This document shows, piece after piece, positions 47,942 to 64,000 of a DNA stretch of 64,000 nt (position 1 is the first letter of the stretch; each line of letters begins with the position of its first letter). A model generated the notes under the pieces. It had not been told where the DNA came from and searched no databases. It saw only the letters and a list, made by a program, of their open reading frames with translations. The stretch is from a virus (Duplodnaviria; Heunggongvirae; Uroviricota; Caudoviricetes). The position numbers and the translations under genes are program-made. The stretch is from positions 66,082-130,081 of the IMG/VR virus record IMGVR_UViG_3300038443_000660; one strand, 5' to 3'.

Positions 47942-48430
47942 AAACTATTACCTATTATCCCTGTATTCTGACCAATTTACCATCAACAATCTTGAACGTA
48001 TTTGGGAAGAAATGTTGAAGTACGGCAGTTTCAGCCGAAAACGTATCTTCGAATTTCATGACTTGTTGTTTAAGGCCGGTATCGAGGGAATTCGATAGTG
48101 TTTTCATATCAGTTACTCTTTAGTTTCAATTTGGTTGGAATGCCACTCCCATTCCTAGATAATACTTCGTCCTTATGACGTGACCTTATCTCTGGTGCCA
48201 GCATGGACTCGAATACCTTCCGGTATACCTGATATTTATACACCATGGAGCGTAAGCATGGTGTTTATATGGACACGGAACCGCTTTTTGTAGAATTCTA
48301 CCTATCAACCACGACCTTGTTGCAACTAAAGGCTAGTCCATATTCTCGATTAAAACCAGATTAGCCGTATCGAACGGCTTTTTGGCCGATCAACCAAACG
48401 CAATCACACTCATCGAGGTTTAATCAATTG
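47942..48430. other. ORF-poor structured region (candidate ncRNA) ending in a plus-strand hairpin plus T-run
   Basis: No ORF over 76 aa; local hairpins (ccatgg-agcgtaag-catgg); agccgt-atcga-acggct plus ttttt at 48363-48383. Confidence 0.3.
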
Positions 48431-48664
48431 TCATCGTTGTAATTTAAAATCGTTTGCTTTCGTTATAACACCACCGTACACACTAAAATAGTCATTTGCG
48501 ACTTTGTATTCATTCTTATTCAACCATGCTAGAAACACAGGATAAAATGTATTATTTCGAATATGGTCAACTGTCCACAAATCTATATCGTAATTGTCGG
48601 AAAATGCTGATGCTCTCCCAAGTGTTATTTCTGATATAACATACATTTTTTTGTGTTTGTTCAT
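48431..48664 (-). CDS. hypothetical protein
   Basis: 77 aa ORF. Confidence 0.35.
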   Translation of the reverse strand: MNKHKKMYVISEITLGRASAFSDNYDIDLWTVDHIRNNTFYPVFLAWLNKNEYKVANDYFSVYGGVITKANDFKLQR

Positions 48665-49671: not shown

Positions 49672-50106
49672 TTAACCCTTGAATGACACAGAAAACGCAA
49701 TCAACGGGTCCAATGTTTTCACACTCACCATTCTGCGAATCTGAATAGGATTATCAAATTTGAGTGAATTTTTGAATTCATACTTTTTAGTTATAAAAAT
49801 TTCTCTATGAATGTTGTATGCATGAATTGCCGCTTCTTTGCTATTAAAATCTAGGGCTGAAATTTTATATTCCAGTATTTTACTTTTGAACTCATCGTGC
49901 GACTCGTCGCCAGATGCAACATGTATTAGTGGTGTTATTACCTCAACAAGTGTGTTAAAATATTCATTAAGAACAACTTCATATTCGGCAAGTTCTTGTT
50001 CAAAAGTGGTTTTCGGCATATTCGGGATAGCCATCGCCGTGGTTGGTAAAAGACCACCAACTGTCACGGCACCCAAACACTTCAACAAATTTCTTTTATT
50101 AACCAT
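49672..50106 (-). CDS. secreted hypothetical protein
   Basis: N-terminal signal MVNKRNLLKCLGAVTVGGLLPTTAMA. Confidence 0.4.
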   Translation of the reverse strand: MVNKRNLLKCLGAVTVGGLLPTTAMAIPNMPKTTFEQELAEYEVVLNEYFNTLVEVITPLIHVASGDESHDEFKSKILEYKISALDFNSKEAAIHAYNIHREIFITKKYEFKNSLKFDNPIQIRRMVSVKTLDPLIAFSVSFKG

Positions 50107-50109
50107 GAT

Positions 50110-50544
50110 TTAATCCTTCGGTTTCCATTGCGTCTTACGCTGCGATTTCCAGTTACGTTCAATGCTCCTAGTACGGTCATCCCAAGAATTAGGAAGCAAA
50201 TTCCTCTTAGGGCGAGTAGGAAATTCCTGCGAACGTTCTTGCTTGGTTCTGACATTCTTGCAATAGGGTCCACCGTTGTAATTACGAATGCCGGGAACCG
50301 GCCCACGACGATGGACATATTTCTTTCGACCGTACCAGTGTTCCAGTTGCGCCTTGCGCATTTTCCAGAAAACATCATAGAGTTTTACGATGTCAATCGG
50401 CTGGTGGTCGTAAGAATCAAGAATACTGATTTCAAGTTCATGTTCATTATGACGATAATGATAAAATTCTCCCCAATAAGCACTGACAACTTCTTCAAGA
50501 GTCTCAAACTTACGGTAAGTAAGAAACGTTTTGACAATATACAT
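50110..50544 (-). CDS. hypothetical protein
   Basis: 144 aa basic ORF. Confidence 0.4.
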   Translation of the reverse strand: MYIVKTFLTYRKFETLEEVVSAYWGEFYHYRHNEHELEISILDSYDHQPIDIVKLYDVFWKMRKAQLEHWYGRKKYVHRRGPVPGIRNYNGGPYCKNVRTKQERSQEFPTRPKRNLLPNSWDDRTRSIERNWKSQRKTQWKPKD

Positions 50545-50645
50545 TTTGTTCTCCTAAGTTAAACTAACTTAGAAAAACTGGTCCTGTGCAAAAGAATAGG
50601 CAAACATCATTTTAATCCTTACTGCCAATCAACGGTATTACCGTA

Positions 50646-50981
50646 TCATGTATTTATGTCGTTGTCAAATTCTTTTTTACATTCTACAACTGTAGAACGT
50701 TTAATCATTTTATCGTTTTCAGACACAATTTCCCATTCGGTATCAGAATCATATTCTGTCACTCGAATGTATTTTCCAAGCAATTCGAATTTGCATTTTT
50801 CACACAAATCCAATTCGAGACTATCCATATCCTGAAACCAATTTGCCCCATATCCGGCAGTATCCTTGTATTGAAGGAACTCCTGATAGTCCAAGGGGTT
50901 ATCATATGTTTTCTTACATACGTCACATGTGATTGAATCGAGGATATCGACAACATGTGTTTCTTGTCGGTAATTTTTCAT
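50646..50981 (-). CDS. zinc-finger hypothetical protein
   Basis: CDVCKK...CEKCK. Confidence 0.4.
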   Translation of the reverse strand: MKNYRQETHVVDILDSITCDVCKKTYDNPLDYQEFLQYKDTAGYGANWFQDMDSLELDLCEKCKFELLGKYIRVTEYDSDTEWEIVSENDKMIKRSTVVECKKEFDNDINT

Positions 50982-50984
50982 TGT

Positions 50985-51242
50985 TTATTCCTTATCTATT
51001 GTTTCGGCGATTGCCTGTTTAGCATATTCTAAATATTCTTGACGTTCATCACTGTCAAAAATGCCATCGCCCTTTGGATTTGCGGCATAGATAAGATTGC
51101 CGTCCTTATCATCCACGGTAAAACGACCGTGGCGAAGGCGAAGATAGCCAACATATTCACCATTATAGTACGCATCGTATTGTTCTGGACATGCACCGCA
51201 CGTTTCTTCCAATTTGATATCATCGGCATTAATCATATTCAA
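50985..51242 (-). CDS. hypothetical protein
   Basis: 85 aa; CGACPEQ. Confidence 0.35.
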   Translation of the reverse strand: MNMINADDIKLEETCGACPEQYDAYYNGEYVGYLRLRHGRFTVDDKDGNLIYAANPKGDGIFDSDERQEYLEYAKQAIAETIDKE

Positions 51243-51442
51243 TCTCCATAATAATCCATCATTTTATGACCTGATCTTAGAATATACACGAAACTACCAA
51301 CATATACAATAGGCCAACCGATAATAAACCAATCATATCGCCATGTCAGAATCAAATAGAAAAACAGCAAGGGACAACATATAGCCAATGACAGAATGAA
51401 GTTGATTGTTGGTTTGTTGATGTAACGCTTAATTTTTACCAT
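51239..51442 (-). CDS. small membrane protein
   Basis: 67 aa with two TM helices. Confidence 0.35.
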   Translation of the reverse strand: MVKIKRYINKPTINFILSLAICCPLLFFYLILTWRYDWFIIGWPIVYVGSFVYILRSGHKMMDYYGD

Positions 51443-51993
51443 TTCCCTTCCTGCTTCATTTTCAAAATATGTGCAGTATAAACATTATTGGAAAATATCA
51501 ATAATTCTAAACGAGCATACAATGTATATCGAAATTTGTCAATCGTGGAAACAGGGCTGCGAACTTTACTATGCAACCAAGTTCTGAACTTTTTGACGTG
51601 AGGATAAAATTTCAAACGGGTCATCAATTTGAAAAAAGTGTAATTCGTTGTGTGCCTAGTCGAATTACATTCAGCGCAAGTCAGAATGAGATTTTTAACC
51701 AGATGTTCGCCGCCCCTGCTAACTGCTTTGATATGTTCAAACGTAGCATATCGTGGTGATGTTGCTTTAGAGAATTTCATCTGTTGTTGGCAGCAATCGC
51801 AAAGGCCATTCTGATTTTTGAACATTTGCGCCTTCAAAATATCAATATGAAGGATGAAGCCTCTGCCTAATTTAAGCGGAGTATTGGTGGAAATGTTCTG
51901 AATAAGCGTATTTTTTGATGATTTAAACGTGTTTGCTATGATACGATATTTCACAATCTTTCGGAATTCGGAAACGTTTAAATCAATTTTCAT
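51436..51993 (-). CDS. HNH endonuclease
   Basis: CDCCQQ...FEHIKAVSRGGEHLVKNLILTCAECN. Confidence 0.6.
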   Translation of the reverse strand: MKIDLNVSEFRKIVKYRIIANTFKSSKNTLIQNISTNTPLKLGRGFILHIDILKAQMFKNQNGLCDCCQQQMKFSKATSPRYATFEHIKAVSRGGEHLVKNLILTCAECNSTRHTTNYTFFKLMTRLKFYPHVKKFRTWLHSKVRSPVSTIDKFRYTLYARLELLIFSNNVYTAHILKMKQEGKW

Positions 51994-52013
51994 GTGGGAA
52001 CTACTTAAGAAAA

Positions 52014-52090
52014 TGGTGATTCCAGTAGGACTCGAACCTACAACCTACAGATTAGAAGTCTGTCGCTCTGTCCAGTTGCGCTATGGAACC
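52014..52090 (-). tRNA. tRNA-Arg (UCU)
   Basis: Acceptor GGTTCCA/TGGAATC plus A plus CCA, D stem GCGC/GAGC, anticodon stem ACAGA/TCTGT with loop CTTCTAA, T arm GTAGG-TTCGAGT-CCTAC. Confidence 0.7.
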
Positions 52091-52105
52091 ATATTTCTAT
52101 TTATG

Positions 52106-52588
52106 TTACTTGCTCATGACATTCTTGAATTTCACAGGTGGCTTTTCGACCAACGCAATAAACTGTAATGGAAATATTCCATAAACCAATTCTGGGTCAT
52201 TTTCAAGCTGTTGACGACAATAATCTTGTGCCTCTTTGATAGAATTAAATAGGGCTGAATATTCTGGCCCCGTACCCTCGTATTCGGCAACCAAATCCAT
52301 TCTACAAACAATAACGAACTGTTTCGTATTAGTTGTGTCTTTCTTTTTCGTTGAATTAGAATAATGATATCTAAAATTTTTTGCCTTGTACCAAATCGTT
52401 TCATTCTCATAGTACGTAGAATTGCCGCCCTCGGCAGAAATTCTTATTAACTGCCCAGAACCTTTCATAGTATCCGTGACTACATATGGCTTTCCCCGTT
52501 CAGCGCTCATATAATATGCAGTAGGCGTTACAACATCCCCAACAACGTAATCTTGCATTATTTTAATTCCTTTGGTGTATACGGGCAA
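52106..52588 (-). CDS. hypothetical protein
   Basis: 160 aa ORF. Confidence 0.4.
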   Translation of the reverse strand: MPVYTKGIKIMQDYVVGDVVTPTAYYMSAERGKPYVVTDTMKGSGQLIRISAEGGNSTYYENETIWYKAKNFRYHYSNSTKKKDTTNTKQFVIVCRMDLVAEYEGTGPEYSALFNSIKEAQDYCRQQLENDPELVYGIFPLQFIALVEKPPVKFKNVMSK

Positions 52589-52742
52589 AATATTTTGGTT
52601 CTTTCTCCGTCTTTTATGTAATCGATGTCAACAGCTTCATACCAGATACATTCAAAATCATGGGTCATTGTTCCGTTTTCGTCTCTCTGAACACCACAAC
52701 AAATACAATAACCACGTTTAACCTTAATTGCCTTGCCTATGT

Positions 52743-53468
52743 TCATTTTTTAAAAATCATGTATGACGAATTGGATATCGTTGAAAGCTGATTTTCGTTC
52801 TCTGCATTCTGAACTACTGTAAAAATTTCGGTTCTTCTCGAATCTACTTTTGCTGTGAATTCCTTGATGGTCCCATGGCACAATTCAAAACCAGAACCAT
52901 ATCTGGCGTTGATATACAGGACTTTATCGCCAATATTTAGCATATTTCCATCAATATCATGTTGTTCAGGATTGGCCAGAACATCAGTCTTGGCCGTTTT
53001 TGCGTCGAATTTTTCCCAAACGGTAGGCCCGTTATAATTCAGAAGTGCGACAACTTCTCGATTGTAGAGAGAAGTTTTTACGGAATTTTTTCGGCCATCC
53101 CAATGACAAATCCCGTACATAGAATCGTTTATGATTCCATACTGACATTCTGGTCTATAACTATACCCACGGCGATAATCGATTGTGATTTCTTTTTGAG
53201 AAAAATTATAATCTTTTGTGTTGGGTTTTACCTTGGCGATAGAACCTTTTCGATCACCAGAAATGAACTTAATGTATAATGTTCCTTCCCATAGCTTACG
53301 AGAAACTTCATTCAGGACTCGTACAATTTCAACGGCTGTAGGATCGTCTTTATCCTCGAAACCGTTACAGTATGGAAATGGAATTGAACAAGGAAATTCG
53401 TCTGGAAACATGATAATCTTTCTGTATTTTTTCAATATATATATGCATTTTTTCTTAGAGTCAACCAA
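52743..53468 (-). CDS. hypothetical protein
   Basis: 241 aa ORF. Confidence 0.45.
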   Translation of the reverse strand: MVDSKKKCIYILKKYRKIIMFPDEFPCSIPFPYCNGFEDKDDPTAVEIVRVLNEVSRKLWEGTLYIKFISGDRKGSIAKVKPNTKDYNFSQKEITIDYRRGYSYRPECQYGIINDSMYGICHWDGRKNSVKTSLYNREVVALLNYNGPTVWEKFDAKTAKTDVLANPEQHDIDGNMLNIGDKVLYINARYGSGFELCHGTIKEFTAKVDSRRTEIFTVVQNAENENQLSTISNSSYMIFKK

Positions 53469-53539
53469 AGAGAAGTTGGAATATCTGATAATGCCATAAG
53501 AAAAGATTCAAATGTAGAAATCTTATATAAACAAGCAAC

Positions 53540-53565
53540 CACACCCAATTGGGTGTGGTTTTATT
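53540..53565. terminator. palindromic hairpin (possible bidirectional terminator)
   Basis: ccacaccc-aatt-gggtgtgg with T-rich flanks on both strands. Confidence 0.4.
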
Positions 53566-53566
53566 T

Positions 53567-53653
53567 TGGAGGATCGGGTGAGGCTCGAACTCACACGGGC
53601 TTTACGCCGCCAAATTAAAAGTTTGGTCGCTTCACCAATTTGCATACCGATCC
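53567..53653 (-). tRNA. class II (long variable arm) tRNA with anticodon UUU and U73 - unusual
   Basis: Acceptor GGATCGG/CCGATCC plus T plus CCA, 3-bp D stem, clean anticodon stem CCAAA/TTTGG with loop CTTTTAA, 15-nt variable arm, T arm GTGAG-TTCGAGC-CTCAC. Confidence 0.5.
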
Positions 53654-53698
53654 ATTATTTATACTTTATTCAGCAAAACTATCTTTGTCAAGCTTTAA

Positions 53699-53938
53699 TT
53701 AAACCCAAACAGTCCATACTTCTACTTGGTCTTCTGAAAATGAACGCCATTCTGAAATATCAACATCAAACACTTTGATAATATCAGGATTCACATAGCC
53801 ACCAGAACCGGTAGGATGTTTGTCCGCTGGAATCAAATCGAAATTCTTGGTGCAATTCATGTGCCTGATTGTACCATCTTTCTTGGTAAATGTTACATAA
53901 ACCGTACCGTTTTTCAAAGCATCTTTCAAATTATGCAT
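53699..53938 (-). CDS. hypothetical protein
   Basis: 79 aa ORF. Confidence 0.35.
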   Translation of the reverse strand: MHNLKDALKNGTVYVTFTKKDGTIRHMNCTKNFDLIPADKHPTGSGGYVNPDIIKVFDVDISEWRSFSEDQVEVWTVWV

Positions 53939-53951
53939 AGTTACTTTTCTC

Positions 53952-54236
53952 CTAATGTGTGTTTGCTATCAAAAGGTCGCCAATTTCATAAAGGGCTTCC
54001 TCATTATATTCCATATCCATCACCTGATTATATTCACATACCCATTCTGCCGAAAGCATTCTCGCCTTTGCTCTAACAACGACTTTTTCAACGACAATTT
54101 TCATTTCCTCGAAACTGGTTTCAGAAGTTACAGGACTGAAAATAGTTCCATTAGATGTTGCTGGTGCGCTTGTCGTGACCACAATGCCAGCAACAGCAAC
54201 AGAACCGACACCAGAGATAAATTCACGTCGATTCAT
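53952..54236 (-). CDS. small Tat-signal secreted protein
   Basis: MNRREFISGVGSVAVAGIVVTTSA twin-arginine motif plus h-region. Confidence 0.45.
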   Translation of the reverse strand: MNRREFISGVGSVAVAGIVVTTSAPATSNGTIFSPVTSETSFEEMKIVVEKVVVRAKARMLSAEWVCEYNQVMDMEYNEEALYEIGDLLIANTH

Positions 54237-54478
54237 TTAATACGCCTAATACACGCATCAGTAATCGAAACACAAGAATAATTATATCCCATGCTTCGAA
54301 TTTTGTTGGTATAGTCGTCATCAACTCGAATAATGTATGCGCCCCAACCCGGAGGATAATTTGAATCATCAGCATGTGCTACACCAGCCGATGGACCACG
54401 ACCACAAATTGTTCCGGTGATTCCATTCATCGATGGAATATTATAAAGTTCTACTCTATCACCTTCAAGAAACTTCAT
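54233..54478 (-). CDS. hypothetical protein
   Basis: 81 aa ORF. Confidence 0.35.
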   Translation of the reverse strand: MKFLEGDRVELYNIPSMNGITGTICGRGPSAGVAHADDSNYPPGWGAYIIRVDDDYTNKIRSMGYNYSCVSITDACIRRIK

Positions 54479-54647
54479 CGACGTTCTCCCTTAGTTGCTA
54501 TCCACAATACTCCATATCCAGCTAAAAGCATAGCAATACCTATCAACGGAAAATAAACTGGTATGTAAAAATCATAGCCTCTCGATAAGAGAATGAAGGC
54601 TATGATTCCGACACACCAGACAGAAAACAAAATATATGGAAGATTCT

Positions 54648-55049
54648 TCATTTCTCTGGATACCGCCAGTAGAATTGTTCACGATACCCTTCCGCAATCT
54701 TGCTGTCAACAGTTTCATTCCAAACTCGTTTTGCCATTCCATCAGGAAGTTCTTTGGCGGCTTCACGAATATTCATAAGTTGTTCACGACCACGCCGATA
54801 TACCGAACCATCATCGGAATACATATGGGTCAAATCATGGCTAACGCACATATTTCGAAAAAGTTCTTCCAATACAGAGTCATACAGTTTCATATATGCA
54901 ATTGGATGGTCTGAACCGGTTCGTTGCCAAGAAAAAATATTCTGTGCTGGAATAACTCGGCCATCCGACATCTTGGCCAGATAGAAACGAGGGAATTTCA
55001 TCGGCTTGTCGTTCGAAGTATGTTCAATCCAATTTTCAGCTTCATCCAT
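54648..55049 (-). CDS. hypothetical protein
   Basis: 133 aa ORF downstream of a promoter. Confidence 0.4.
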   Translation of the reverse strand: MDEAENWIEHTSNDKPMKFPRFYLAKMSDGRVIPAQNIFSWQRTGSDHPIAYMKLYDSVLEELFRNMCVSHDLTHMYSDDGSVYRRGREQLMNIREAAKELPDGMAKRVWNETVDSKIAEGYREQFYWRYPEK

Positions 55050-55085
55050 AATACTTCACCATATCCATGCGATAATCTTTATTAT

Positions 55086-55113
55086 AGAATATAGGTTCTA
55101 TCGAAAATGTCAA
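55086..55113 (-). promoter_or_regulatory. sigma70-like promoter TTGACA-N16-TATTCT
   Basis: Minus strand: TTGACATTTTCGATAGAACCTATATTCT. Confidence 0.45.
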
Positions 55114-55340
55114 GCCCCGTTTAGAACTTTGCACCAGCACTGATTGGGCGACAAAATCCATCCTTCCATAATCAAATTTTGACCGATATCGGACTGAATA
55201 TCAATTTCACTAACAGAAACATCAGAATAAACAGTACAGTATCGGAATTCTACATTGATAGGACGGCCAATGTATTGCTCGATTTCCTGTATTACCTTGG
55301 TCCAGTTCATCATCTTCACTCCATCACCAGAACTAGCCAA
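55110..55340 (-). CDS. hypothetical protein
   Basis: 76 aa ORF. Confidence 0.3.
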   Translation of the reverse strand: MASSGDGVKMMNWTKVIQEIEQYIGRPINVEFRYCTVYSDVSVSEIDIQSDIGQNLIMEGWILSPNQCWCKVLNGA

Positions 55341-55367
55341 CCATACTCGAAAAATCTTAACAAATGG

Positions 55368-55799
55368 TTAAGCGGCCTTGATAATTCGGTAAATTGCAAT
55401 AGTATTGAAAGTTTGAATGACCGTCGCAAAAATCACGAATTGGGCGAATGTATGCATCCAATATATTGCGTTAAACGAAAAAATAAACATGATTGCAACA
55501 GATAGAGCAACATCGCTTAGGGGCTTCAAAAACCAAAGCTTTTCTAATTTATGACGAATAAATTTTTCTGGTTCATTTACAACCGCTGATTTAATAAATG
55601 GCTTCAAGAAAATGAAAGCGAATGAACAGAGTATCACCATTAGAATATAGATGATAGACATTGCAGCATAAGGAACCACGGAAACACTATATGAAGACAA
55701 GAAAACCATTAAGTAAACCGAAAGCATATATCCCGCTCTGGTCAAAATAAATTTATAAGTTTCAGTAGCGTTAACGGCTTTCATTTCTAGTTCAGTCAT
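55368..55799 (-). CDS. membrane protein
   Basis: 143 aa with 4 predicted TM helices. Confidence 0.4.
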   Translation of the reverse strand: MTELEMKAVNATETYKFILTRAGYMLSVYLMVFLSSYSVSVVPYAAMSIIYILMVILCSFAFIFLKPFIKSAVVNEPEKFIRHKLEKLWFLKPLSDVALSVAIMFIFSFNAIYWMHTFAQFVIFATVIQTFNTIAIYRIIKAA

Positions 55800-55839
55800 A
55801 TAATGTTTCCGTGATTGTATTGTACGTTATTTGTGAGAA

Positions 55840-56529
55840 TTACGAATTAATAGCAGTCTTTTCTTCATCAGTCATGTATGAGGCCGAAGCTGATGCAGTA
55901 GCTGCATATCTTATGCTTGAGCCTACCAAGGAACGAGCCGTATCCATAAAGTTTACCGGATTATAGGCATTAAGTGTTCCTAGATTTGAAACGATTTTTG
56001 CACCACCATTGAATGCTTCAAGCGTAGCACCAAGATATGTTACCGGCCAATTCTTCTTTTCATACTTAGCCAGAAGTTTCTTGGTATCTTCTAAAGAATG
56101 TTCGGTGGAAACATTTTCGTCACCATCCGTAATGATAACAAACTGAACCAAATCAGTTTTCTTCAAACCATTCTTCTTAGGAGTAGAGCCAAATTCACAA
56201 ATTGCATCGTACAGCGGCGTCATACCCCTTGGTGCAATTGACTTGTCATTGGCGGAAAATTCCGTCCAGTTTGAAGCATTCATGTATTTGTATTGAAGAA
56301 TCGGTTCAAGCCTAGACGAACCGTCATTGTAGAGGCGGTTGAAGTTCGGATAGGCTTCCTTGTCAAAGAATGCCAGTGTCAACAAAACATTGACATCATT
56401 ATTGCTTTTTAGTGTATTTAAATACTCATTCAAAGTTGCAATAGTCTTAGACCAATGAGTAGACATAGAACCAGTACGGTCAACCAAAACATATAGATTA
56501 AGAGTCTTCTTTTCAGTGTTAGTAGTCAA
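55840..56529 (-). CDS. von Willebrand factor A (vWA) domain protein
   Basis: MIDAS motif LVDRTGSMS; later VIITDGDEN. Confidence 0.6.
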   Translation of the reverse strand: MTTNTEKKTLNLYVLVDRTGSMSTHWSKTIATLNEYLNTLKSNNDVNVLLTLAFFDKEAYPNFNRLYNDGSSRLEPILQYKYMNASNWTEFSANDKSIAPRGMTPLYDAICEFGSTPKKNGLKKTDLVQFVIITDGDENVSTEHSLEDTKKLLAKYEKKNWPVTYLGATLEAFNGGAKIVSNLGTLNAYNPVNFMDTARSLVGSSIRYAATASASASYMTDEEKTAINS

Positions 56530-56560
56530 AATTTTCCTCGAATTGTTTGAGTTGTAGATA

Positions 56561-56583
56561 AAATAAAAGGGCCATTCAGGCCC
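56561..56583 (-). terminator. rho-independent terminator closing the ORF-free region
   Basis: gggcc-attca-ggccc with TTTTATTTT on the minus strand. Confidence 0.55.
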
Positions 56584-56585
56584 AT

Positions 56586-57425
56586 ATTATAAATTTCAAA
56601 GATATAAGTGAAACGTTGAGATTTAAGTTTCGCCACGGCCTTTCAGGACATTATAGGTTTGTTGCGCAAACCCTTCTTCCCTTATCCACCACCTTTTGAG
56701 TGGTATCCGCTAGGAATTTTTTGTATTCGACATCCACGATTTACTCGGCAACTTCTACATTAAATAGACCGGCCAAAGTCCACCTAATATTTCCCTTACC
56801 AAATTCCAACTACCTTGCGGGTAATCAGAACACCATATTCTGTTTCCAGTATGGTATTAATTCCCTTCATCGTGAACCGGAACAGACTTTGCTTTTTTAT
56901 AATAGACATTGGAATTGAACCAATATTCTATCGCTCCAAATGCGATTGCCTTACCATTCGGCTAGTCTGTAACCCACCAAGACGTGCTGTTCCAGTTGTT
57001 CCATAAACTTTTGGTCTACAGAATGCAACACGCCTCATATTTTCGACTTGCGGTCTACTCATGATCTTTCAAGAATCAGTTACCTTGCGGTCCCAAATCC
57101 TATCAGAATGACATTCGCCCTTGTCTGCTAAACTCGGACTAAAAATGCCCCAAAACGTTAGCTATCAACCATGGATAAGTTTTGCGTGGTATAAGATGCT
57201 TGCGGCATCGATTTCGGTCCAGTGTTACCCAACCTAATCTTTTTCTACCCTTATCGTCCGATCTATTTCCAACCTTGCGATTGAAACCATGCCTAAGTCT
57301 ATCAAACTCGTGCATGAAGCCCGTTCGCCGTATGCAACCTCTATTTCTAGAGTCGATAGAAACATGGGATTTCTATCTGTCAGAGTGTTACCACTCCTAT
57401 CATCACACGGAAAAATTCCTTGGTA
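56586..57425 (-). ncRNA. candidate large structured non-coding RNA (~0.85 kb, unclassified)
   Basis: No ORF over 85 aa; GC-richer than the backbone; at least five CCGCAAGG-type hairpins with GCAA (GNRA) loops on the minus strand; terminator at the 3' side. Confidence 0.35.
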
Positions 57426-57956
57426 TTAGTTACCATTGACTAATACAATTTTCTCCACAAATGTAATAGCTTTAGATATTTCTATCTTAAACCATTCTCC
57501 GTTGTTTTCGTAGCCAACCAATTCTTTTATTAGTAATTGTTCAGCCAATTTTCTATCATTAACTTGTCTTAAGTGACATAAGTTATATGATCTTGTTGGA
57601 TCACCAGTTTGATAAACTGATAGTCTTCGTTTTATGTTTAAAGCACATCCAATTTTAACCCAACCGGGCCATGCCTTATTTTCTATAACATAAACTGAAC
57701 CACTTTTTTGTGAATTTTGCGTTCCTACTACTCTATTCGCATCTTCACAAACAGATTCAACGTTTATTTTTACTTCTTTTAAGATTCTCTCTTTTTTTCG
57801 AGTTTCTTTCTGTAAGGCGATGTTCTGCTTTCTCTTATTACGCCTACCATTCAATGTCAAGTTTTTGTTTCTTGTTGTTATTTGGCAGGCGACACATGTT
57901 TTTTCATAACTATCATGCTTTGAACATGTCCATTTATAATTGTTTATGAAGGACAT
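57426..57956 (-). CDS. T5orf172-domain (GIY-YIG-like) protein with N-terminal Cys cluster
   Basis: GSVYVIENKAWPGWVKIGCALNIKRRLSVYQTGDP...EWFKI; N-term CSKHDSYEKTCVAC. Confidence 0.55.
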   Translation of the reverse strand: MSFINNYKWTCSKHDSYEKTCVACQITTRNKNLTLNGRRNKRKQNIALQKETRKKERILKEVKINVESVCEDANRVVGTQNSQKSGSVYVIENKAWPGWVKIGCALNIKRRLSVYQTGDPTRSYNLCHLRQVNDRKLAEQLLIKELVGYENNGEWFKIEISKAITFVEKIVLVNGN

Positions 57957-58152
57957 TTCATTATCTTTTTCATATCTAGGAGTGGTGTCTTAAAAAGCTG
58001 ACAGACTCTCTTATTAGACGACTGCATAAGCAGAATGGACTTTACACCATCATTGCCACTTATTTCTTTAACGATTGTTCAAGAAAACAGTTTATTTTGA
58101 ACTATTTGCTTCAACAATCAGTATTCATTTAATATAGTTTATTTAGTTCCCT

Positions 58153-58450
58153 TTGTCAACAAGAAAATTTAAAATTTTCCAACTATTTTCATTTTTTTCA
58201 ACTTTTTTCGTTGGTATTGGGAGAATGGACAGGCTCTAGAAACCCATGCTTTCGACTTCCCATATTGTGCAAGTTTTTTAACCTTTTCCATTTAGATGGT
58301 TAGCAGGCCATCTATCGAAAGAAAAGCTGTGAATTGCTAGTCCACCACTTGCACCCAAGTTATGTTGTTGTTGACACTACCCTATTCTTTTTCGTGTGTC
58401 AACAAGGAAATTCAAAATTTTCTAACTATTTTCACTTTTTCTCTAGAATT
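58153..58450. repeat. two ~53 bp direct repeats (tgtcaacaag-aaaattyaaaattttcyaactattttcay-ttttt)
   Basis: Copies at ~58153-58205 and ~58388-58440; related ttttcactttttctctagaa again at 58751-58770. Confidence 0.55.
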
Positions 58451-58671
58451 TCGATTTCAGCGAAAGAAAGACGAACAATCGGCTTTCCATAGTCATTTGT
58501 CTCACGCTTCTTGAAGGTAACTTTGTAACGATTACCCTCCATCTTTTCCATGGAAGCGTAAATGGTCCTCGTGCCAGCAGTCATGGACTTATTGTCCACC
58601 ATCCACTGAATGATTTCACGCTGTCTAGCAGTCACATGACGGGCAGCTACAATCTTGTACGAAGCAGACAT
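58432..58671 (-). CDS. hypothetical protein
   Basis: 79 aa ORF. Confidence 0.35.
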   Translation of the reverse strand: MSASYKIVAARHVTARQREIIQWMVDNKSMTAGTRTIYASMEKMEGNRYKVTFKKRETNDYGKPIVRLSFAEIEILEKK

Positions 58672-58747
58672 TTATCCCTCCAACCAATCTACAATCAAAA
58701 CGTACTATAGATTAGAAAGAATGTCAACTCATAAAAAAAATGTATTT

Positions 58748-58939
58748 TCACTTTTTCTCTAGAAATCTATTTTCAGTTTCACGAATGAACAGACATGTCG
58801 TGGAATGTATTCCACAATATTCACGTTCTATCATTTCAATCAATTTCCATCCAAAATCGCCTTGTTCATTCAGCCATTCTATGGATATCTGGGTCTTTTT
58901 ACCCGGATTGATATGTTTCTTATATTCGTATTGTTTCAT
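58748..58939 (-). CDS. hypothetical protein
   Basis: 63 aa ORF. Confidence 0.3.
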   Translation of the reverse strand: MKQYEYKKHINPGKKTQISIEWLNEQGDFGWKLIEMIEREYCGIHSTTCLFIRETENRFLEKK

Positions 58940-58941
58940 GG

Positions 58942-59364
58942 TTAATCCATCCTGCTACCCGGATAGGCGTTGATACCAGCTTCCCGAAGGACATTGGCAA
59001 AGGCACGAGCGTAAGCTTCCTTTCGCTGCATCGACTGCCCGCCTTCCGAAACCCAAATCTCATAGCCGCCATAGTATCCGGCATGGCCACGAACGCCGTT
59101 CTTCTTGCACCACGTCACAAACGGGCCTCGACCGGGCGCAATCGTCACCCACGCAAAACCACAAACCCCGCCTTCCTCGTAATAGGTCGGCTTCGAATAA
59201 TCGATCTTGTCAGACAGGCCGATGGCCGAACCGACAATCATTGGGACAGGGCGAGTCGCCTCAAGGGCAGCAAGACCAGCCGCACGAGCCTTCTCATAAA
59301 GAATGCCCGCCTGCTTAGGCGTCATCTTGACCGACTTCTTAACCGAATTCTCCATTTCTCTCAT
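58942..59364 (-). CDS. hypothetical protein (GC-rich)
   Basis: 140 aa, Gly/Ala-rich, ~55 percent GC. Confidence 0.45.
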   Translation of the reverse strand: MREMENSVKKSVKMTPKQAGILYEKARAAGLAALEATRPVPMIVGSAIGLSDKIDYSKPTYYEEGGVCGFAWVTIAPGRGPFVTWCKKNGVRGHAGYYGGYEIWVSEGGQSMQRKEAYARAFANVLREAGINAYPGSRMD

Positions 59365-59398
59365 TCTCCTAAAAAGAGGAAACCAACGATGTATCTTT

Positions 59399-59427
59399 TA
59401 TATAGAATGAAATTGTAGAAGTGTCAA
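59399..59427 (-). promoter_or_regulatory. sigma70-like promoter TTGACA-N17-TATATA
   Basis: Minus strand: TTGACACTTCTACAATTTCATTCTATATA. Confidence 0.55.
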
Positions 59428-59447
59428 GCGGTCATTTTCAAAATGTT

Positions 59448-59539
59448 TGGTAGGGGACCAAGGATTTGAACCTTGTCGAGAACGATAATCTGTCGCTGAA
59501 AGGTTTATAAAACCTCCCTGTGTACCAACACCATCCCCC
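59448..59539 (-). tRNA. tRNA-like gene, 92 nt, anticodon possibly UAU, very long variable region
   Basis: Acceptor GGGGGAT/GTCCCCT (two G-U) plus A plus CCA, T arm CAAGG-TTCAAAT-CCTTG, anticodon stem GAGGT/ACCTT with loop TTTATAA, ~24-nt variable region. Confidence 0.4.
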
Positions 59540-59545
59540 AATTTC

Positions 59546-59878
59546 TCACGTATCCGAACTCTCAAAATATTTTTGAGGCAGGAAGGAAACCACAGAATTC
59601 CTTTGGTTGTCATAGGCAATAGGGACATTAGTTCCTGCCAAATTCATGGCAAAAATAGAAATTCTGTTGGTCTTATGTTCAAGAAACATAGCTTCGCCGT
59701 TCTGAATCTGATTCTTGATATGATAGATATCGGATTCAGAAAAATTCAAATCATATCGCTCTTTAGCCCTAGTCTGTGCGTGTTTGGTTTGAGCGTTGAT
59801 TTTGTTCTTATACTTTCTTGACTTCTTTCTCGGATTTCCCGTTTTCTTCATTTTTTGCTCCATTAATTTCGTCATCAA
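59546..59878 (-). CDS. hypothetical protein
   Basis: 110 aa basic ORF. Confidence 0.35.
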   Translation of the reverse strand: MMTKLMEQKMKKTGNPRKKSRKYKNKINAQTKHAQTRAKERYDLNFSESDIYHIKNQIQNGEAMFLEHKTNRISIFAMNLAGTNVPIAYDNQRNSVVSFLPQKYFESSDT

Positions 59879-60146
59879 AATAATGCGAGATTTTCAGATA
59901 TTCTTCCTCGGAAAGCAGAACATCATGATAGTAATATCCGTTATTTTCGATACCAAGAATATACTTAATGCCTAACCACAGACGCTTGGTGAACCTAAAC
60001 TTCGCCAAGGTTGCGTGAATTGTATATTCTATCGAGTCGGGATAGTCATCACCCCAATCATGTCGTTCTATAAGAATATGATGTTCAACATCAGGACATG
60101 TACAGGGAATAAATTTTACATTTCGCTTAGGTTGCAGATTGTTCAT
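59808..60146 (-). CDS. hypothetical protein
   Basis: 112 aa ORF. Confidence 0.35.
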   Translation of the reverse strand: MNNLQPKRNVKFIPCTCPDVEHHILIERHDWGDDYPDSIEYTIHATLAKFRFTKRLWLGIKYILGIENNGYYYHDVLLSEEEYLKISHYFDDEINGAKNEENGKSEKEVKKV

Positions 60147-60576
60147 TATATTTCTTTCCAGATGTATCTTTCAGGTTCGTCATAAAATCATTGCAGGCTT
60201 CAATGATGATATCGACCGGAAGATTGAATTTTTCAGTCATATATGACAAAAACGATACCGTGTCAAATGTTCCGTGACGATGTTTCCAATATTCGTATTC
60301 GATAAAACATTTCAACGGTAACGGGTCCGACGAAAAATAAAAAAATTTTTTTTGGTTCGTCTCTGTGATTTTCATGAAATCGATGAACGGGAACCACACC
60401 CATTTGATATGGGTTTTTCTGGAAATCCTACCGTCTAATTCATATTCCCACTTGGTTTTTTTTCTGATGCCAATCAAAGGCAAAATTTTGTATTTCATCC
60501 GCTTTTTGAATGCGGTGCCGAGTAGAATATACCTAGTCGTATTGTCGTCAAATAACTTGAATTTAATAGTTCTCAT
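60127..60576 (-). CDS. hypothetical protein
   Basis: 149 aa ORF. Confidence 0.4.
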   Translation of the reverse strand: MRTIKFKLFDDNTTRYILLGTAFKKRMKYKILPLIGIRKKTKWEYELDGRISRKTHIKWVWFPFIDFMKITETNQKKFFYFSSDPLPLKCFIEYEYWKHRHGTFDTVSFLSYMTEKFNLPVDIIIEACNDFMTNLKDTSGKKYNEQSAT

Positions 60577-60867
60577 TTACGATATTTTAGAATATTTATT
60601 CAAGAATTCGTCATTTTTTAGGATTTCTATATTATCGGTTTCAGGATTATGGACAATCCAATCCAATTCATAGATGTGATAATGCACATTATTTTTGTAA
60701 TACAGCGATATATAATTGGGACCATAGTCTGTGCAAACAGAAAAAATTGAACTTAAATCAATCCAATTGGGTAATTTGACTTTTGCTACGTTAAATTCGA
60801 CTTGACTACCTTCTATATGAACACATTGGATTGCGGTAAATTCGACCGGTTTCTTCGTATAAATCAC
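60577..60867 (-). CDS. hypothetical protein
   Basis: 96 aa ORF. Confidence 0.35.
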   Translation of the reverse strand: MIYTKKPVEFTAIQCVHIEGSQVEFNVAKVKLPNWIDLSSIFSVCTDYGPNYISLYYKNNVHYHIYELDWIVHNPETDNIEILKNDEFLNKYSKIS

Positions 60868-60987
60868 TTCGAACCACCAGAAAATTTATCTGCCAAGAAC
60901 GCCATGACAAAAGCAAAACCAACCATGACGCTAATCAAAAGACCTGTAGCAAGCAATGCTTGTGCAATTTCTGTACCAGTACCCATG

Positions 60988-61392
60988 TTATTTCCTTTCT
61001 AAAATTTCTTTTGTTCCATCTGGAAAAACTATGTCAATTGGGGATTTTAAACGAAGCATATCGTTAGCTTCGATAATCATTCTATCTGTGAAATATCCTT
61101 CGATAGTGAATGGGAGTGCATCTGTATTTTCTACTGTAACTATCTCATATGCAACAATTTCGCATTCCATATACGGAAGAAATGCTCCAAATAAGCGAAC
61201 AGTTTCCCGTTTGCTATCAGAATAACATCTATATCCATAATCTCTATGGATAGCTTGGTTCAAATGATTTTTTAGAGCGCCAAGAGAAGCCCATGATTTT
61301 CCAGATTTGGTAAATGTTGGACTTGTTCCACCGGTAGAGAATAATCCATCAGATTTACGGCGAATCTTGTAGACGTATTTCTTGTTTGTCAT
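60988..61392 (-). CDS. hypothetical protein
   Basis: 134 aa ORF. Confidence 0.4.
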   Translation of the reverse strand: MTNKKYVYKIRRKSDGLFSTGGTSPTFTKSGKSWASLGALKNHLNQAIHRDYGYRCYSDSKRETVRLFGAFLPYMECEIVAYEIVTVENTDALPFTIEGYFTDRMIIEANDMLRLKSPIDIVFPDGTKEILERK

Positions 61393-61469
61393 ACGGGACT
61401 TTCTGAAAGAAATTTCAGAAGAACCGACGATTGTTTCCTGTAGTCGGATTTACAATCGTCGGTTCTTGA

Positions 61470-61546
<77 letters not shown>

Positions 61547-61573
61547 TATTCGTTATATATTTATGTTATCCTA

Positions 61574-62110
61574 CTATACTTTCCAATAATCGTCAAGCTT
61601 TTTATTCACATATTCGTTTCGCAACTCTCGATACACATATTGCCACTGAATACCATGATATTTTCTTTCTCTTTCATAGTCGGATGGTATCAAATCCGGC
61701 GAATATGCGTGATACGTAACCGGCACAGGCACTTTCAATTTCTTGTAGATATTGTGCATCATCACAACGGCATGTGCCATTTCATGGCATAAAACCACCT
61801 GCAATGAGTGTTTCCATGTTACTGGATGCTCGATAGAACCGATTTCTTCATCTGCTTCTATATGGGCATATTCATAGTACCCACAAATAGTATAATCGGT
61901 TATATAGAGAACCGAAATCTGAATATACGGTTCGTATCGTTTTCGAACCTTTTTTACTCCCCCTAAACATCCCTCATTTTTGTCGGTCACATTTAAAATT
62001 ACGTCTGGGAAACTTCGATAAATTGCAGTTTCGTTTAAGTAGCCCCTCATGTTGTTTATTGTTTCTGTCGCAAATTCCTTCATCGCCGCTAAATTATCTG
62101 GTTTCAACAT
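61574..62110 (-). CDS. SprT-like zinc metalloprotease domain protein
   Basis: HExxH motif LCHEMAHAV; 178 aa. Confidence 0.45.
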   Translation of the reverse strand: MLKPDNLAAMKEFATETINNMRGYLNETAIYRSFPDVILNVTDKNEGCLGGVKKVRKRYEPYIQISVLYITDYTICGYYEYAHIEADEEIGSIEHPVTWKHSLQVVLCHEMAHAVVMMHNIYKKLKVPVPVTYHAYSPDLIPSDYERERKYHGIQWQYVYRELRNEYVNKKLDDYWKV

Positions 62111-62240
62111 GTTGCCTCATCAACAAATTGTTAAACTTGATTCTTTCAACTTAAACGTTCAAACGAGGCAGGTCAAGCCAAAATTACACGTTGAAATGAA
62201 TCTTTATCTCGGAAACTGTGGATAACCTACAAAATAGTGT

Positions 62241-62435
62241 TTAGAAACTAGACCTTCCCCGCAGTTCTTCATATTCCGATTCGGTCATTTTCATTATCGT
62301 CATTGACCCCTTCATACTCAAATATTGTGAATTAAACTTCATCCTATGTTTTATAGATGGTTTTTCCATAGAATAAAACACAATATAATTATCATCCTTC
62401 GGGTCAGACTTGAAAACTATAAACTTGTTCATCAA
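62241..62435 (-). CDS. hypothetical protein
   Basis: 64 aa ORF. Confidence 0.3.
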   Translation of the reverse strand: MMNKFIVFKSDPKDDNYIVFYSMEKPSIKHRMKFNSQYLSMKGSMTIMKMTESEYEELRGRSSF

Positions 62436-62644
62436 CTAAAATTTGCCTTTGCGCACAATTCTTCATATTCTTGGTCGGTTAATAATCCACTCTTATTGAG
62501 ATATTTTTGTGCCACATATTTTTTCACCCATTTCTTTTTACCCATAGAAATCAATTTTGCTGTGGAATGCATCATATATTTCCCCTCCAAGAAACTGATA
62601 AAATCTGATTCTCCAAAATTCAGGATAAAAAACACTTGCTTCAT
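62432..62644 (-). CDS. hypothetical protein
   Basis: 70 aa ORF. Confidence 0.3.
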   Translation of the reverse strand: MKQVFFILNFGESDFISFLEGKYMMHSTAKLISMGKKKWVKKYVAQKYLNKSGLLTDQEYEELCAKANFS

Positions 62645-63009
62645 TCAATATCTTTCCAAAGTACAGGATTTAGTGGATACTCTGAATCTTCATCATCATG
62701 CTTGAACCACCAATCGGGCATAGACACTATTGGACCCCAACCTTCTCCCGACAAATCTTCATCAAAGCCACCACCAAAATCGGCCAAATACAACCCGTTT
62801 GGAGAATGGCCATTCCCTTCTACCCATGCAGCATAGGTCGTGATGCACTTTCCAGTAGGGTCGTCCAAATCTTGGTATGTATCGGCATCATGGTCATGAT
62901 AAACGAGAATTACACGGTCCTTCGGTGCAGAATCCATCGTTTTCATTTTGGATTTGATTAATTCCAAATTTTTAAAATTTCTTAGTGAGTACAAAATTTC
63001 GTTTGACAT
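62641..63009 (-). CDS. hypothetical protein
   Basis: 122 aa acidic ORF. Confidence 0.4.
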   Translation of the reverse strand: MSNEILYSLRNFKNLELIKSKMKTMDSAPKDRVILVYHDHDADTYQDLDDPTGKCITTYAAWVEGNGHSPNGLYLADFGGGFDEDLSGEGWGPIVSMPDWWFKHDDEDSEYPLNPVLWKDIE

Positions 63010-63010
63010 T

Positions 63011-63460
63011 TTAACCCTTTGGTAAGATTACAAGCCCGTCCAACCATGGAACAACCAAAACCGGAATGGAATAATATCTTCCCGTATAACCATTTCGCAA
63101 TGAAGTTGTCACGTCGAATCGATACAATGATTTTGACGAATCCAAGTTCATCAAATTTGCAAATTGTTCTTGTCCAATGTATATTATTAGCTGTTCTGGA
63201 TTGTACATGGAACAAATGTCATTAATGTTTTTGACATTTTTGAATATGAAATCATCCAGACGTTTTTGTTCTAATTCAGTAAATTTGAATACTTCATATG
63301 TTTCCCCATATAAATGTGTTTTTATTGCAGAAATTTTATGGAGAATTTTCCAGCAAATATCAGCCAACCACTTGTATTTTTGTGGCTTATATTCATATTT
63401 CGGTTCGTCAAGAATTTTTCTGTGTTTTCTAGAAGTGATAACAAAAGTTTTTATTTGCAA
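63011..63460 (-). CDS. hypothetical protein
   Basis: 149 aa ORF. Confidence 0.4.
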   Translation of the reverse strand: MQIKTFVITSRKHRKILDEPKYEYKPQKYKWLADICWKILHKISAIKTHLYGETYEVFKFTELEQKRLDDFIFKNVKNINDICSMYNPEQLIIYIGQEQFANLMNLDSSKSLYRFDVTTSLRNGYTGRYYSIPVLVVPWLDGLVILPKG

Positions 63461-63747
63461 ATCTTAAATCCTTCCGTGAAAGTTCCAGCAAATCTTGATG
63501 CCAAACTCTCATGTGTATCTGCTTTCAATAATTTTACAATATATGCAGAATTTCGCCATTTCAAAACAGAAACCAACCAATCTTTGGGGCGTGCCATCGC
63601 ATATTCATAGGCAGCTTTCCTTGCGGCTCTATAGTCATCTTGCCTTTTTTGCAGCTTTGGATTTTTTCGTAATCGCTCACGTAAGGCCCATTCATACATC
63701 AACGCATCCATGCGATAATCGAATGGGTGATAAATTTCATGTGGCAT
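63451..63747 (-). CDS. hypothetical protein
   Basis: 98 aa ORF. Confidence 0.35.
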   Translation of the reverse strand: MPHEIYHPFDYRMDALMYEWALRERLRKNPKLQKRQDDYRAARKAAYEYAMARPKDWLVSVLKWRNSAYIVKLLKADTHESLASRFAGTFTEGFKICK

Positions 63748-63985
63748 GAAGTGACGAACTCCAATAGCTTATGTAATCAATTGTAGAGCCTTCGTCATAT
63801 ATCCGATTACCTTGAAAAATTTCAGGGCAATCGTGCGTCACTGGCGCTCCACACGCCATTGTTGATAAATGCTCTGGTGTGCAAACAAATGTTGGGTTGT
63901 TGGGAACACCAACAACCCAACCACATTTACGGCAAAGCATTTCCTCTTTACCATATGGTTTGAAATCGTGTTTACGATATTTCAT
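63737..63985 (-). CDS. Cys-rich hypothetical protein
   Basis: 82 aa; CRKCGW...CTPEH...CGAP...C. Confidence 0.35.
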   Translation of the reverse strand: MKYRKHDFKPYGKEEMLCRKCGWVVGVPNNPTFVCTPEHLSTMACGAPVTHDCPEIFQGNRIYDEGSTIDYISYWSSSLHAT

Positions 63986-64000
63986 TTTCCGTGCATAATC

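Follow-up and report, generated by a model that had tools for sequence, protein, structure and literature searches.

A probable tRNA-Lys in a class II body encoded by a phage, and the recurrence of this long-arm design among phage tRNAs

We identified a tRNA-Lys gene in a class II body at 53567-53653 on the minus strand of a 64,000-nt stretch of viral DNA (IMG/VR virus record IMGVR_UViG_3300038443_000660, positions 66,082 to 130,081; hereafter the window), and scans of viral and cellular sequence collections establish this as a widespread phage design. In bacteria a long variable arm is, according to the textbook rule, limited to Leu, Ser and Tyr (and Sec) tRNAs. Phages break this rule systematically, with at least 63 distinct long-arm Lys(UUU) genes and with long-arm Lys(CUU), Asn, Thr, Cys, Gly and other tRNAs, and they carry in addition a separate Ile(UAU) family of at least 100 distinct genes whose arm is capped by the loop CAGAUUA. 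We consider it reasonably probable that the gene in the window gives a jumbo phage a functional elongator tRNA that reads AAA, and probably AAG, is charged with lysine and perhaps evades nucleases through its arm.

The gene is labelled tRNA-Lys(ttt) by ARAGORN with a score of 111.4, within the range of the window's other tRNAs, and obtains 88.5 bits with R1, a covariance model made in this analysis. A scan of the 14 kb from 50000 to 64000 with the Rfam tRNA model RF00005 aligned it over its full length with 50.6 bits (E 1.5e-8; gathering score 29) and a 12-nt insertion in the variable region; a whole-window run of RF00005 at the gathering score did not pick up 53567-53653. Its 5′ half reads GGAUCGG UA UGC AAAUUGGUGAA GCG A CCAAA CUUUUAA UUUGG and is followed after the anticodon stem by CGGCGUAAAGCCCGU GUGAG UUCGAGC CUCAC CCGAUCC U CCA. 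On the minus strand this comprises a 7-bp acceptor stem (53653-53647 with 53577-53571), a 3-bp D stem UGC/GCG with an 11-nt loop (53644-53642 with 53630-53628), an anticodon stem with five of five perfect pairs, a canonical 7-nt anticodon loop CUUUUAA (53621-53615) with U33, A37 and the anticodon UUU at 53617-53619, a 15-nt variable arm CGGCGUAAAGCCCGU (53595-53609) made up of one unpaired nucleotide, a 3-bp stem GGC/GCC, a 5-nt loop and three unpaired nucleotides, a T arm with a 5-bp stem (53594-53578), the discriminator U73 (53570) and an encoded CCA (53569-53567). An earlier, sequence-only reading of the window had described the UUU loop, the 3-bp D stem, the 15-nt variable arm and U73, and all of these stand. 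A sigma-70-like promoter match (TTGACA-17-TAAAGT, 10/12; 53663-53691(-)) ends 10 nt 5′ of the gene, and a terminator-like hairpin of 10 pairs (6 G-C) with a U-rich tail (53537-53560(-)) starts 6 nt past the CCA. Both are consensus matches, and promoter-like sites number four in the region against 2.7 expected.

With an RF00005 score above 29 bits and all four cloverleaf helices the gene is a tRNA by definition, and it has the structural marks of class II, namely a variable region longer than 10 nt with a stem-loop, a 3-bp D stem and an enlarged D loop, whereas its anticodon is foreign to the bacterial class II isotypes (Leu, Ser, Tyr or Sec). With bacterial tRNA-Lys it shares U34, U35 and U36 and lacks both A73, the usual discriminator of canonical Lys, Leu and Tyr tRNAs, and the class I body with its 4-5-nt variable loop and 4-bp D stem. 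The sequence-only reading had named standard folds and isotypes with normal scores as the outcome that would tell against it. Half of that outcome was returned, as normal scores and a Lys call, while the fold itself is non-standard.

Near relatives give no covariation signal, since the tRNA is 100% identical in the window's own contig (L001; loci compared here carry L numbers) and in L002, a related contig of a different sample. An exact search of viral contigs with the window's anticodon arm found no match, and the proteins encoded at 55840-56529 and 52743-53411, used as anchors, led to 10 distant loci, from all of which the tRNA-Lys was absent. As contig relatives carry an identical copy and sequence searches found no near relative of the phage among cultured phages, we scanned the collections with a pattern consisting of the D-loop motif TGGT, the loop CUUUUAA, a spacing of 19-33 nt to the T loop (13-14 nt in class I tRNAs) and an encoded CCA. 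The IMG/VR viral contigs contained 74 matches, 67 of which are called tRNA(UUU) by ARAGORN at 84-94 nt, giving 56 distinct genes; the same pattern with an Arg(UCU) loop, run as a control on the viral contigs, gave 16 matches and a single long-arm tRNA. From 596 Gb of bacterial and archaeal genomes came 62 matches and 22 ARAGORN calls, around 10 of them credible: about half of the 22 are either tRNA-Lys genes of archaea that contain introns or artefacts of assembly, and most of the remainder lie in loci of 6-22 tRNA genes resembling prophage arrays. Two cellular copies, in Bradyrhizobium and Pseudaminobacter, are identical to viral ones (L071 and L017, respectively).

Cultured phages carry the design too. 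Megablast with 30 long Lys genes as queries found no match in cultured phages, and blastn with a word size of 11 was needed. It recovered one and the same 87-nt long-arm tRNA-Lys gene in Serratia phage BF and in six of the Erwinia pEa_SNUABM phages. In Mesorhizobium phage Cp1R7A-A1 it recovered a Lys(UUU) and a Lys(CUU) gene, both of 88 nt and with U73, and an 88-nt Asn gene, and in the Rhodobacter phage RcXuper and the Xanthomonas phage X1 further long-arm tRNA-Lys genes. Throughout, the annotation of these cultured-phage Lys genes is plain "tRNA-Lys". A full-text literature search, which left subscription-only papers uncovered, returned no description of long-arm phage tRNA-Lys or of tRNA-Ile with a CAGAUUA arm. 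Long-arm tRNA-Lys is a minority design that recurs in phages.

Other isotypes at the viral loci that hold a long Lys(UUU), a biased sample, are long-armed to differing degrees. Long and short forms number 16 and 27 for Asn(GUU), 11 and 18 for Lys(CUU), 7 and 21 for Cys, 7 and 17 for Thr(UGU), 6 and 31 for Glu(UUC), and 5 and 2 for Ile(UAU). Arg(UCU), Ala and Trp are seldom long (1/21, 1/32 and 1/25 long/short), and Val, Asp, Phe and His never are.

A number of further departures from the standard tRNA body were seen in phage arrays. Gly(UCC) tRNAs that a hairpin inserted in the variable region brings to 84-85 nt occur in Serratia phage BF (L291 1486-1570) and at L296, L215 and L238. As a mirror image of long-arm Lys, short class-I-shaped tRNA-Leu genes of at most 79 nt account for 20 of 61 distinct UAA genes, 34 of 43 CAA genes and 19 of 48 UAG genes in the arrays L171-L289; short Leu tRNAs are also found in Mesorhizobium phage Cp1R7A-A1 (L290 2827-4255), and the window itself has one candidate (38048-38130). 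The Arg(UCU) control brought up a tRNA-like family without a D arm (L089-L104), not called by ARAGORN, in which a 7-bp acceptor is followed by 7 nt, a UCU anticodon arm, about 20 nt that include a small hairpin, and then CCA preceded by a T arm of normal form. Candidate mismatches between isotype and anticodon include a 95-nt class II tRNA with G73 and the Arg anticodon UCU (L102 13020-13114) and a 90-nt gene of Rhizobium phage RHph_TM2_3B annotated as tRNA-Ser(act) (L170 16806-16895).

The long-arm tRNA-Lys fold is under selection. Among 37 diverse members that were aligned, compensatory double changes are seen at 22 of 23 base pairs, and 89.6% of cells are paired compared with 60.5% in shuffles and at most 53.6% with slid partners; the four canonical helices are 91-98% paired. 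Many variable-arm stems were out of register in both the MAFFT and the covariance-model alignment (62% paired), and hairpins in this region were therefore scored sequence by sequence against shuffles. A hairpin of at least 3 bp is present in 87% of the 63 distinct genes versus 43±6% of shuffles (maximum 56% in 200); the stems comprise 47 different sequences. The modal arm has one nucleotide, a stem of 3-4 bp, a 4-nt loop and 3-4 trailing nucleotides, to which the arm in the window is about equal, and this geometry is like that of phage Tyr and Leu arms and unlike that of Ser arms. GNRA tetraloops, present in 24 of the 63 arms, were rejected as a Lys speciality, being equally frequent in phage Ser (54%) and Leu (40%) arms.

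Identity elements read from the sequence point to lysine as the amino acid that the tRNA would carry. Lys identity is dominated by the anticodon, to the extent that a transplanted UUU confers it, with A73 as a secondary element that is marginal for the class I lysyl-tRNA synthetase LysRS-1 (PMC9976931). Lysyl-tRNA synthetase (LysRS) would recognise the tRNA through UUU, the main Lys identity element. At LysRS the exchange of A73 for U73 would cost little, but it would remove the A73 needed by the leucyl- and tyrosyl-tRNA synthetases (LeuRS and TyrRS), for both of which A73 is an established determinant, and would so keep a Leu/Tyr-shaped body from mischarging. The G73 of E. coli tRNA-Ser, an antideterminant against LeuRS and TyrRS (PMC9976931), is the other ground on which we take U73 for such a guard.

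The wider family is consistent with this. UUU and CUU occur on one scaffold within one phage in Cp1R7A-A1, L296/L297, L017, L030, L034, L043, L052 and L068, which disfavours charging with Leu, Tyr or Ser because a body of those types has no reason to bear exactly these two anticodons. Of the 63 long-arm Lys genes, 48 have A as discriminator, 13 have U and 2 have G. L292 and L071 have their acceptor stem and variable arm in common and differ in A73/U73 and at a few positions of the D loop and anticodon stem, so the discriminator base is exchangeable on this scaffold, which fits the published Lys identity set. Long Asn and Cys genes retain the discriminators of their own isotypes, G73 in 14 of 14 and U73 in 4 of 4, respectively. 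Lysine is the most frequent amino acid of the window's genes (78 per 1000 codons), and AAA makes up 55% of its codons (43 per 1000). No second tRNA-Lys was found in the window or in the examined flanks, which reach about 9 kb to one side and 1 kb to the other. At L030 and L036 the long and the short Lys(UUU) gene have a common acceptor stem; the expectation that this would be the rule wherever a phage has both forms was dropped, since it is true of only some phages.

The most likely benefit of a phage-borne tRNA-Lys would be the continued reading of Lys codons while the host's own tRNA-Lys is scarce or is cut by a defence nuclease such as PrrC or AriB of the PARIS system; the extra arm and altered core would modify the features by which host nucleases know their target. 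AriB cuts Lys(UUU), Thr(UGU) and Asn(GUU) tRNAs between positions 40 and 41, adjoining the variable region, and tRNA variants of phage T5 escape it and rescue infection (PMC12409363). The tRNA in the window reads U39 U40 U41 and that of E. coli U39 C40 A41; positions 40 and 41 differ, and the key U39 is kept. The long-armed isotypes Asn(GUU), Lys(CUU) and Thr(UGU) overlap the AriB targets, which is suggestive. Evasion of tRNA-cleaving defences is made plausible by the tRNA repair genes of the contig, including those for an Rnl1-like ligase and a PNKP-like phosphatase; that the arm itself achieves it is speculative.

Just beyond the start of the window (L167 11431-17712) lie genes for a HAD_PNKP phosphatase, a Metallophos protein, a Zeta-toxin-like kinase and a T4 Rnl1-type ligase; in T4, Pnkp and Rnl1 are the enzymes that undo the cleavage of tRNA-Lys by PrrC (PMC1484252, PMC2610378). 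Within the window are a PF09414 RNA ligase at 14060-15088(-) (E 7e-32), by family match a possible RNA repair enzyme, a second RNA ligase with PF09414 and an OB-fold domain at 18461-19621(-), a nucleotidyltransferase with a PolyA_pol head domain like that of CCA-adding enzymes at 32872-33999(-) (E 1.4e-32) and a NadR-like protein at 20415-21455(-).

Several observations weigh against a lysine-charged elongator shaped for nuclease evasion. At 119 independent phage loci picked for another tRNA, 2 of 48 distinct Lys(UUU) genes (about 4%) are long-armed. The acceptor stems of long and short Lys tRNAs are unrelated in several phages, and U73 lies outside the Lys identity set. Class II LysRS faces the variable-loop side of its tRNA, where a long arm could clash. 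Resistance to AriB would have to come from the arm, because the U39 of the cleavage site is retained. The D arm closely resembles those of the window's own Leu tRNAs, as does the ending of the arm (..CGU before the T stem), and the closest sequence matches among cultured phages are weak ones to tRNA-Leu, Tyr and Ser. Descent from a tRNA-Leu or tRNA-Tyr is conceivable, as is some degree of mischarging.

We regard it as unlikely that the tRNA serves outside decoding, either as a decoy or sponge for an anticodon nuclease or as the special substrate or handle of a phage enzyme, such as a repair ligase, a CCA-adding enzyme or a transferase that depends on aminoacyl-tRNA. At eight loci (L029, L030, L036, L052, L079, L083, L084 and L088) the long gene is accompanied by a canonical Lys(UUU), which makes the long form redundant for decoding there, and this pairing fits a spare that nucleases do not see and a non-decoding role equally well. 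The richness of the contig in RNA repair genes and the use of charged tRNA outside translation by phage enzymes such as Mom (PMC13219725) also lend themselves to a role of this kind. The anticodon loop, the T loop, the acceptor and T stems of 7 and 5 bp and the CCA are however all canonical, no Lys tRNA other than the long forms was found in the tRNA region of this window or of Cp1R7A-A1, and no specific partner is indicated by the sequence.

The sequence-only reading had proposed a mischarging or recoding tRNA, that is, a Leu-, Tyr- or Ser-type body charged by a synthetase blind to the anticodon so that Leu, Tyr or Ser is put in at AAA; while its structural part, non-canonical tRNAs with a class-II-shaped UUU body among them, stands, this meaning lacks support, and we judge it quite unlikely. 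Besides the class II body, the likeness of the D and variable arms to the window's Leu tRNAs, the weak best matches to phage tRNA-Leu, Tyr and Ser and the Tyr- and Leu-like arm geometry of the family, it has in its favour that LeuRS and seryl-tRNA synthetase (SerRS) do not read the anticodon. There is precedent in the nematode nev-tRNAs (PMC3333845, PMC4300185), and bacterial allo-tRNAs act alike. Recoding is nonetheless unsupported: the scaffold is found on precisely the two Lys anticodons, near-identical genes have now A73 and now U73, the long Asn and Cys genes retain their cognate discriminators, lysine is the commonest amino acid of the window's genes, and the window and its examined flanks offer no other tRNA-Lys. 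U73 is moreover neither the A73 used by LeuRS and TyrRS nor the G73 typical of Ser, and the 3-bp arm is far shorter than phage Ser arms (mean 5.7 bp). Since AAA contributes 43 per 1000 of the phage's own codons, efficient misreading of it would damage the phage. That the gene is a decaying or neutral duplicate, functionless after drift of the anticodon of a class II tRNA to UUU, is very unlikely, for although degenerate-looking neighbours (25547-25635, 26610-26683 and 17953-18027; R1 18-21 bits) invite it, the gene has perfect helices, high scores, CCA and promoter-like and terminator-like sites, an identical copy in a related contig from another sample, and 63 distinct homologues in unrelated phages whose fold is kept by compensatory changes.

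A second family of long-arm tRNAs is represented in the window by a 92-nt tRNA-Ile(UAU) at 59448-59539(-) with the anticodon loop UUUAUAA, a 24-nt variable region forming a 5-bp stem and a 7-nt loop, and a short D arm (3 bp, 6-nt loop). The sequence-only reading had given its length, anticodon and variable region correctly; R1 scores it at 28.5 bits, and an Rfam scan of 50000-64000 at E<=10 found no match there. Five long Ile(UAU) genes found without selection for the arm have the arm loops CAGAUUA (three), TAGAUUG (one) and CUGAUAU (one). The arm in the window is AGCGA-CAGAUUA-UCGUU, and the exact loop is thus present in four of six long Ile(UAU) genes. We define the family by UAU in a canonical loop and a variable region of 21-26 nt with a 4-5-bp stem capped by CAGAUUA, a description that the window's gene matches. 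A scan of viral contigs that required the loop (L171-L289) gave at least 100 distinct genes (100-112 depending on the flank counted) with at least 26 different 4-5-bp stems and, among the matches listed, A73 in 109 of 112. Their bodies have either a normal D arm or a short 3-bp/6-nt D arm as in the window. The pair closing the loop is C-G or G-C in the other 100 among the matches listed and A-U in the window, which differs on both sides of the pair. Cultured carriers include Lactobacillus, Levilactobacillus, Synechococcus and Sinorhizobium phages. The decoding loop is that of the first hairpin, with U33 and A37, whereas the arm loop has an A33-like and a U37-like position around GAU, the major Ile anticodon; the arm loop is unable to decode but looks like a recognisable mimic of the major Ile anticodon loop CUGAUAA. 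That it recruits isoleucyl-tRNA synthetase (IleRS) or a modification enzyme is speculation.

Taken together, the two families raise the tentative and rather doubtful idea that phages have time and again fitted tRNAs of class I isotypes with accessory variable arms that act as functional modules. In the Lys, Asn, Thr and some other tRNAs the arm would alter the shape presented to defence nucleases and leave use by the synthetase and the ribosome intact. In tRNA-Ile the CAGAUUA loop would be a recognition handle that recruits IleRS or an enzyme modifying U34, so that AUA could be decoded without the host lysidine pathway.

The window contains 19 tRNAs by ARAGORN and 23 tRNA-like genes, all on the minus strand, by R1 run without filters; it is part of a 242,456-bp phage-like metagenomic contig (JGI 3300038393, Ga0395904_0000039) on which nearly all genes and tRNAs are on that strand. 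All of the other irregularities listed in the sequence-only reading are likewise present in the sequence. The 83-nt tRNA at 38048-38130(-), with anticodon UAG, loop CUUAGAA, A73 and CCA (R1 44.8 bits; Rfam partial, 25.4 bits), has the enlarged 23-nt D region noted there and a short, class-I-like variable loop. The 104-nt Leu-like tRNA at 5757-5860(-) (Rfam 37.9 bits, R1 46.4 bits), situated 4 nt downstream of Leu(UAA), has the D arm GUG-AAAUUGGUAGA-CAC, A73 and a variable arm of about 33 nt. Its anticodon hairpin GCGGU-GUAGA-GCCGC is as ambiguous as had been stated, with either a 5-nt loop or the loop UGUAGAG (UAG with G33); the ARAGORN call of a His tRNA with a 13-nt intron was dropped for the Leu-like body and the very long arm. 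C33, previously pointed out in the Glu and Val tRNAs, is seen in the ARAGORN folds of tRNA-Glu(UUC) at 25467-25541(-) (loop CCUUCAC; Rfam 52.4 bits) and tRNA-Val(UAC) at 28450-28523(-) (loop UCUACAC; Rfam 55.9 bits). An 83-nt tRNA-Thr(UGU) at 16783-16865(-) (Rfam 51 bits) has an unpaired 12-nt variable loop, CAUACAAACAUC.

At 17953-18027(-) a 75-nt Gly(UCC)-like tRNA with U73 and CCA has the T loop GGCGGUA that was described before and a D loop without GG; it was detected by R1 alone, weakly (18.5 bits, E 0.006), and by neither ARAGORN nor Rfam. It combines the Gly discriminator U73 with the lack of both elbow partners (no G18G19; T loop GGCGGUA), and bears a conceptual likeness to the non-proteinogenic tRNA-Gly of staphylococci. 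Phage Mom uses Gly-tRNA-Gly to modify DNA (PMC13219725). Two genes may be degenerate, a Tyr(GUA)-like one at 25547-25635(-) whose D arm is poor, whose T stem is mismatched and whose acceptor stem is followed by ACACCA, not CCA (R1 21.4 bits), and one at 26610-26683(-) with a 6-nt anticodon loop and no CCA (ARAGORN 100.3, R1 20.6 bits). Low-threshold ARAGORN calls at 22939-23025, 48355-48447 and 5407-5495 had no covariance-model support and were rejected.

The tRNA-Pro(UGG) at 61470-61546(-) matches the tRNA-Pro genes of jumbo phages of Agrobacterium, Rhizobium and Sinorhizobium at 93-96% identity; it is the window's only near-match to cultured phages and a weak hint of an alphaproteobacterial host. 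A full-length GOLLD RNA (RF02032, 168.5 bits) at 56613-57036(-) has a tRNA-Gln(UUG) (56899-56972) embedded in its variable 5′ part. Endonuclease-like genes of the HNH and T5orf172/MUG113 types (51436-51993(-), 57426-57956(-) and 3144-3779(-)) are situated among the dispersed tRNAs, comparable to the homing endonucleases in the tRNA regions of T4 and Rhizobium phages.

Genes of both long-arm families stand in published cultured-phage genomes as plain "tRNA-Lys" or "tRNA-Ile", and with carriers such as Serratia phage BF, the Erwinia pEa_SNUABM phages, Mesorhizobium phage Cp1R7A-A1 and Lactobacillus phage LpeD in culture both questions, of nuclease evasion and of the Ile handle, are testable. If the arms do protect against tRNA-targeting immunity, they would represent a structural escape route beside point mutation. 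If the Ile arm is a handle for identity or modification, it would bear on how AUA is decoded without TilS and offer a natural template for orthogonal tRNA design. Either would amount to a new principle of viral tRNA engineering.

The nearest functional precedent is the nuclease-resistant tRNA-Lys of phage T5, like the tRNA in the window a phage Lys(UUU) that differs from that of the host (PMC12409363). In T5 the difference consists of two anticodon-stem substitutions (U39A and A41C) in a class I tRNA (PMC12409363), whereas here it consists of an extra arm, a 3-bp D stem and U73; the phage in question likewise invests in tRNA repair, and resistance through the long arm is a prediction. The PrrC/Pnkp/Rnl1 system of T4 is similar in having a ligase, a PNKP-type phosphatase and a kinase near a tRNA region and in that tRNA-Lys(UUU) is the classical target, but T4 repairs host tRNA-Lys and encodes none of its own (PMC1484252, PMC2610378), while here the phage adds its own altered tRNA-Lys.

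Three known systems resemble the long-arm design in structure. The nev-tRNAs also place a long arm on a class I anticodon and include an Ile(UAU) version (PMC3333845, PMC4300185), but they are eukaryotic, restricted to nematodes, of class II Leu type with A73 and with Gly(CCC), Ile(UAU) and other anticodons, and charged with Leu by LeuRS (PMC3333845, PMC4300185). The phage tRNAs, in contrast, keep the discriminators of their isotypes, use both Lys anticodons and have an Ile arm loop of their own, CAGAUUA; being phage-borne, with U73 and signs of cognate identity, the tRNA-Lys of the window is no nev-tRNA. Allo-tRNAs are likewise non-canonical, with long arms and unexpected anticodons, were mined from metagenomes and are partly of phage origin (PMC5389517). 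They have acceptor and T stems of 8/4 or 9/3 bp (PMC5389517), whereas the tRNA described here has 7/5, a 3-bp arm and no Ser-type features, and on account of its 7/5 stems it is no allo-tRNA. The type I tRNA-Leu of Streptomyces coelicolor (PMC6614811) shows the same uncoupling of class from isotype in the opposite direction: there a class II isotype has lost its arm (PMC6614811), and here a class I isotype, Lys, has gained one.

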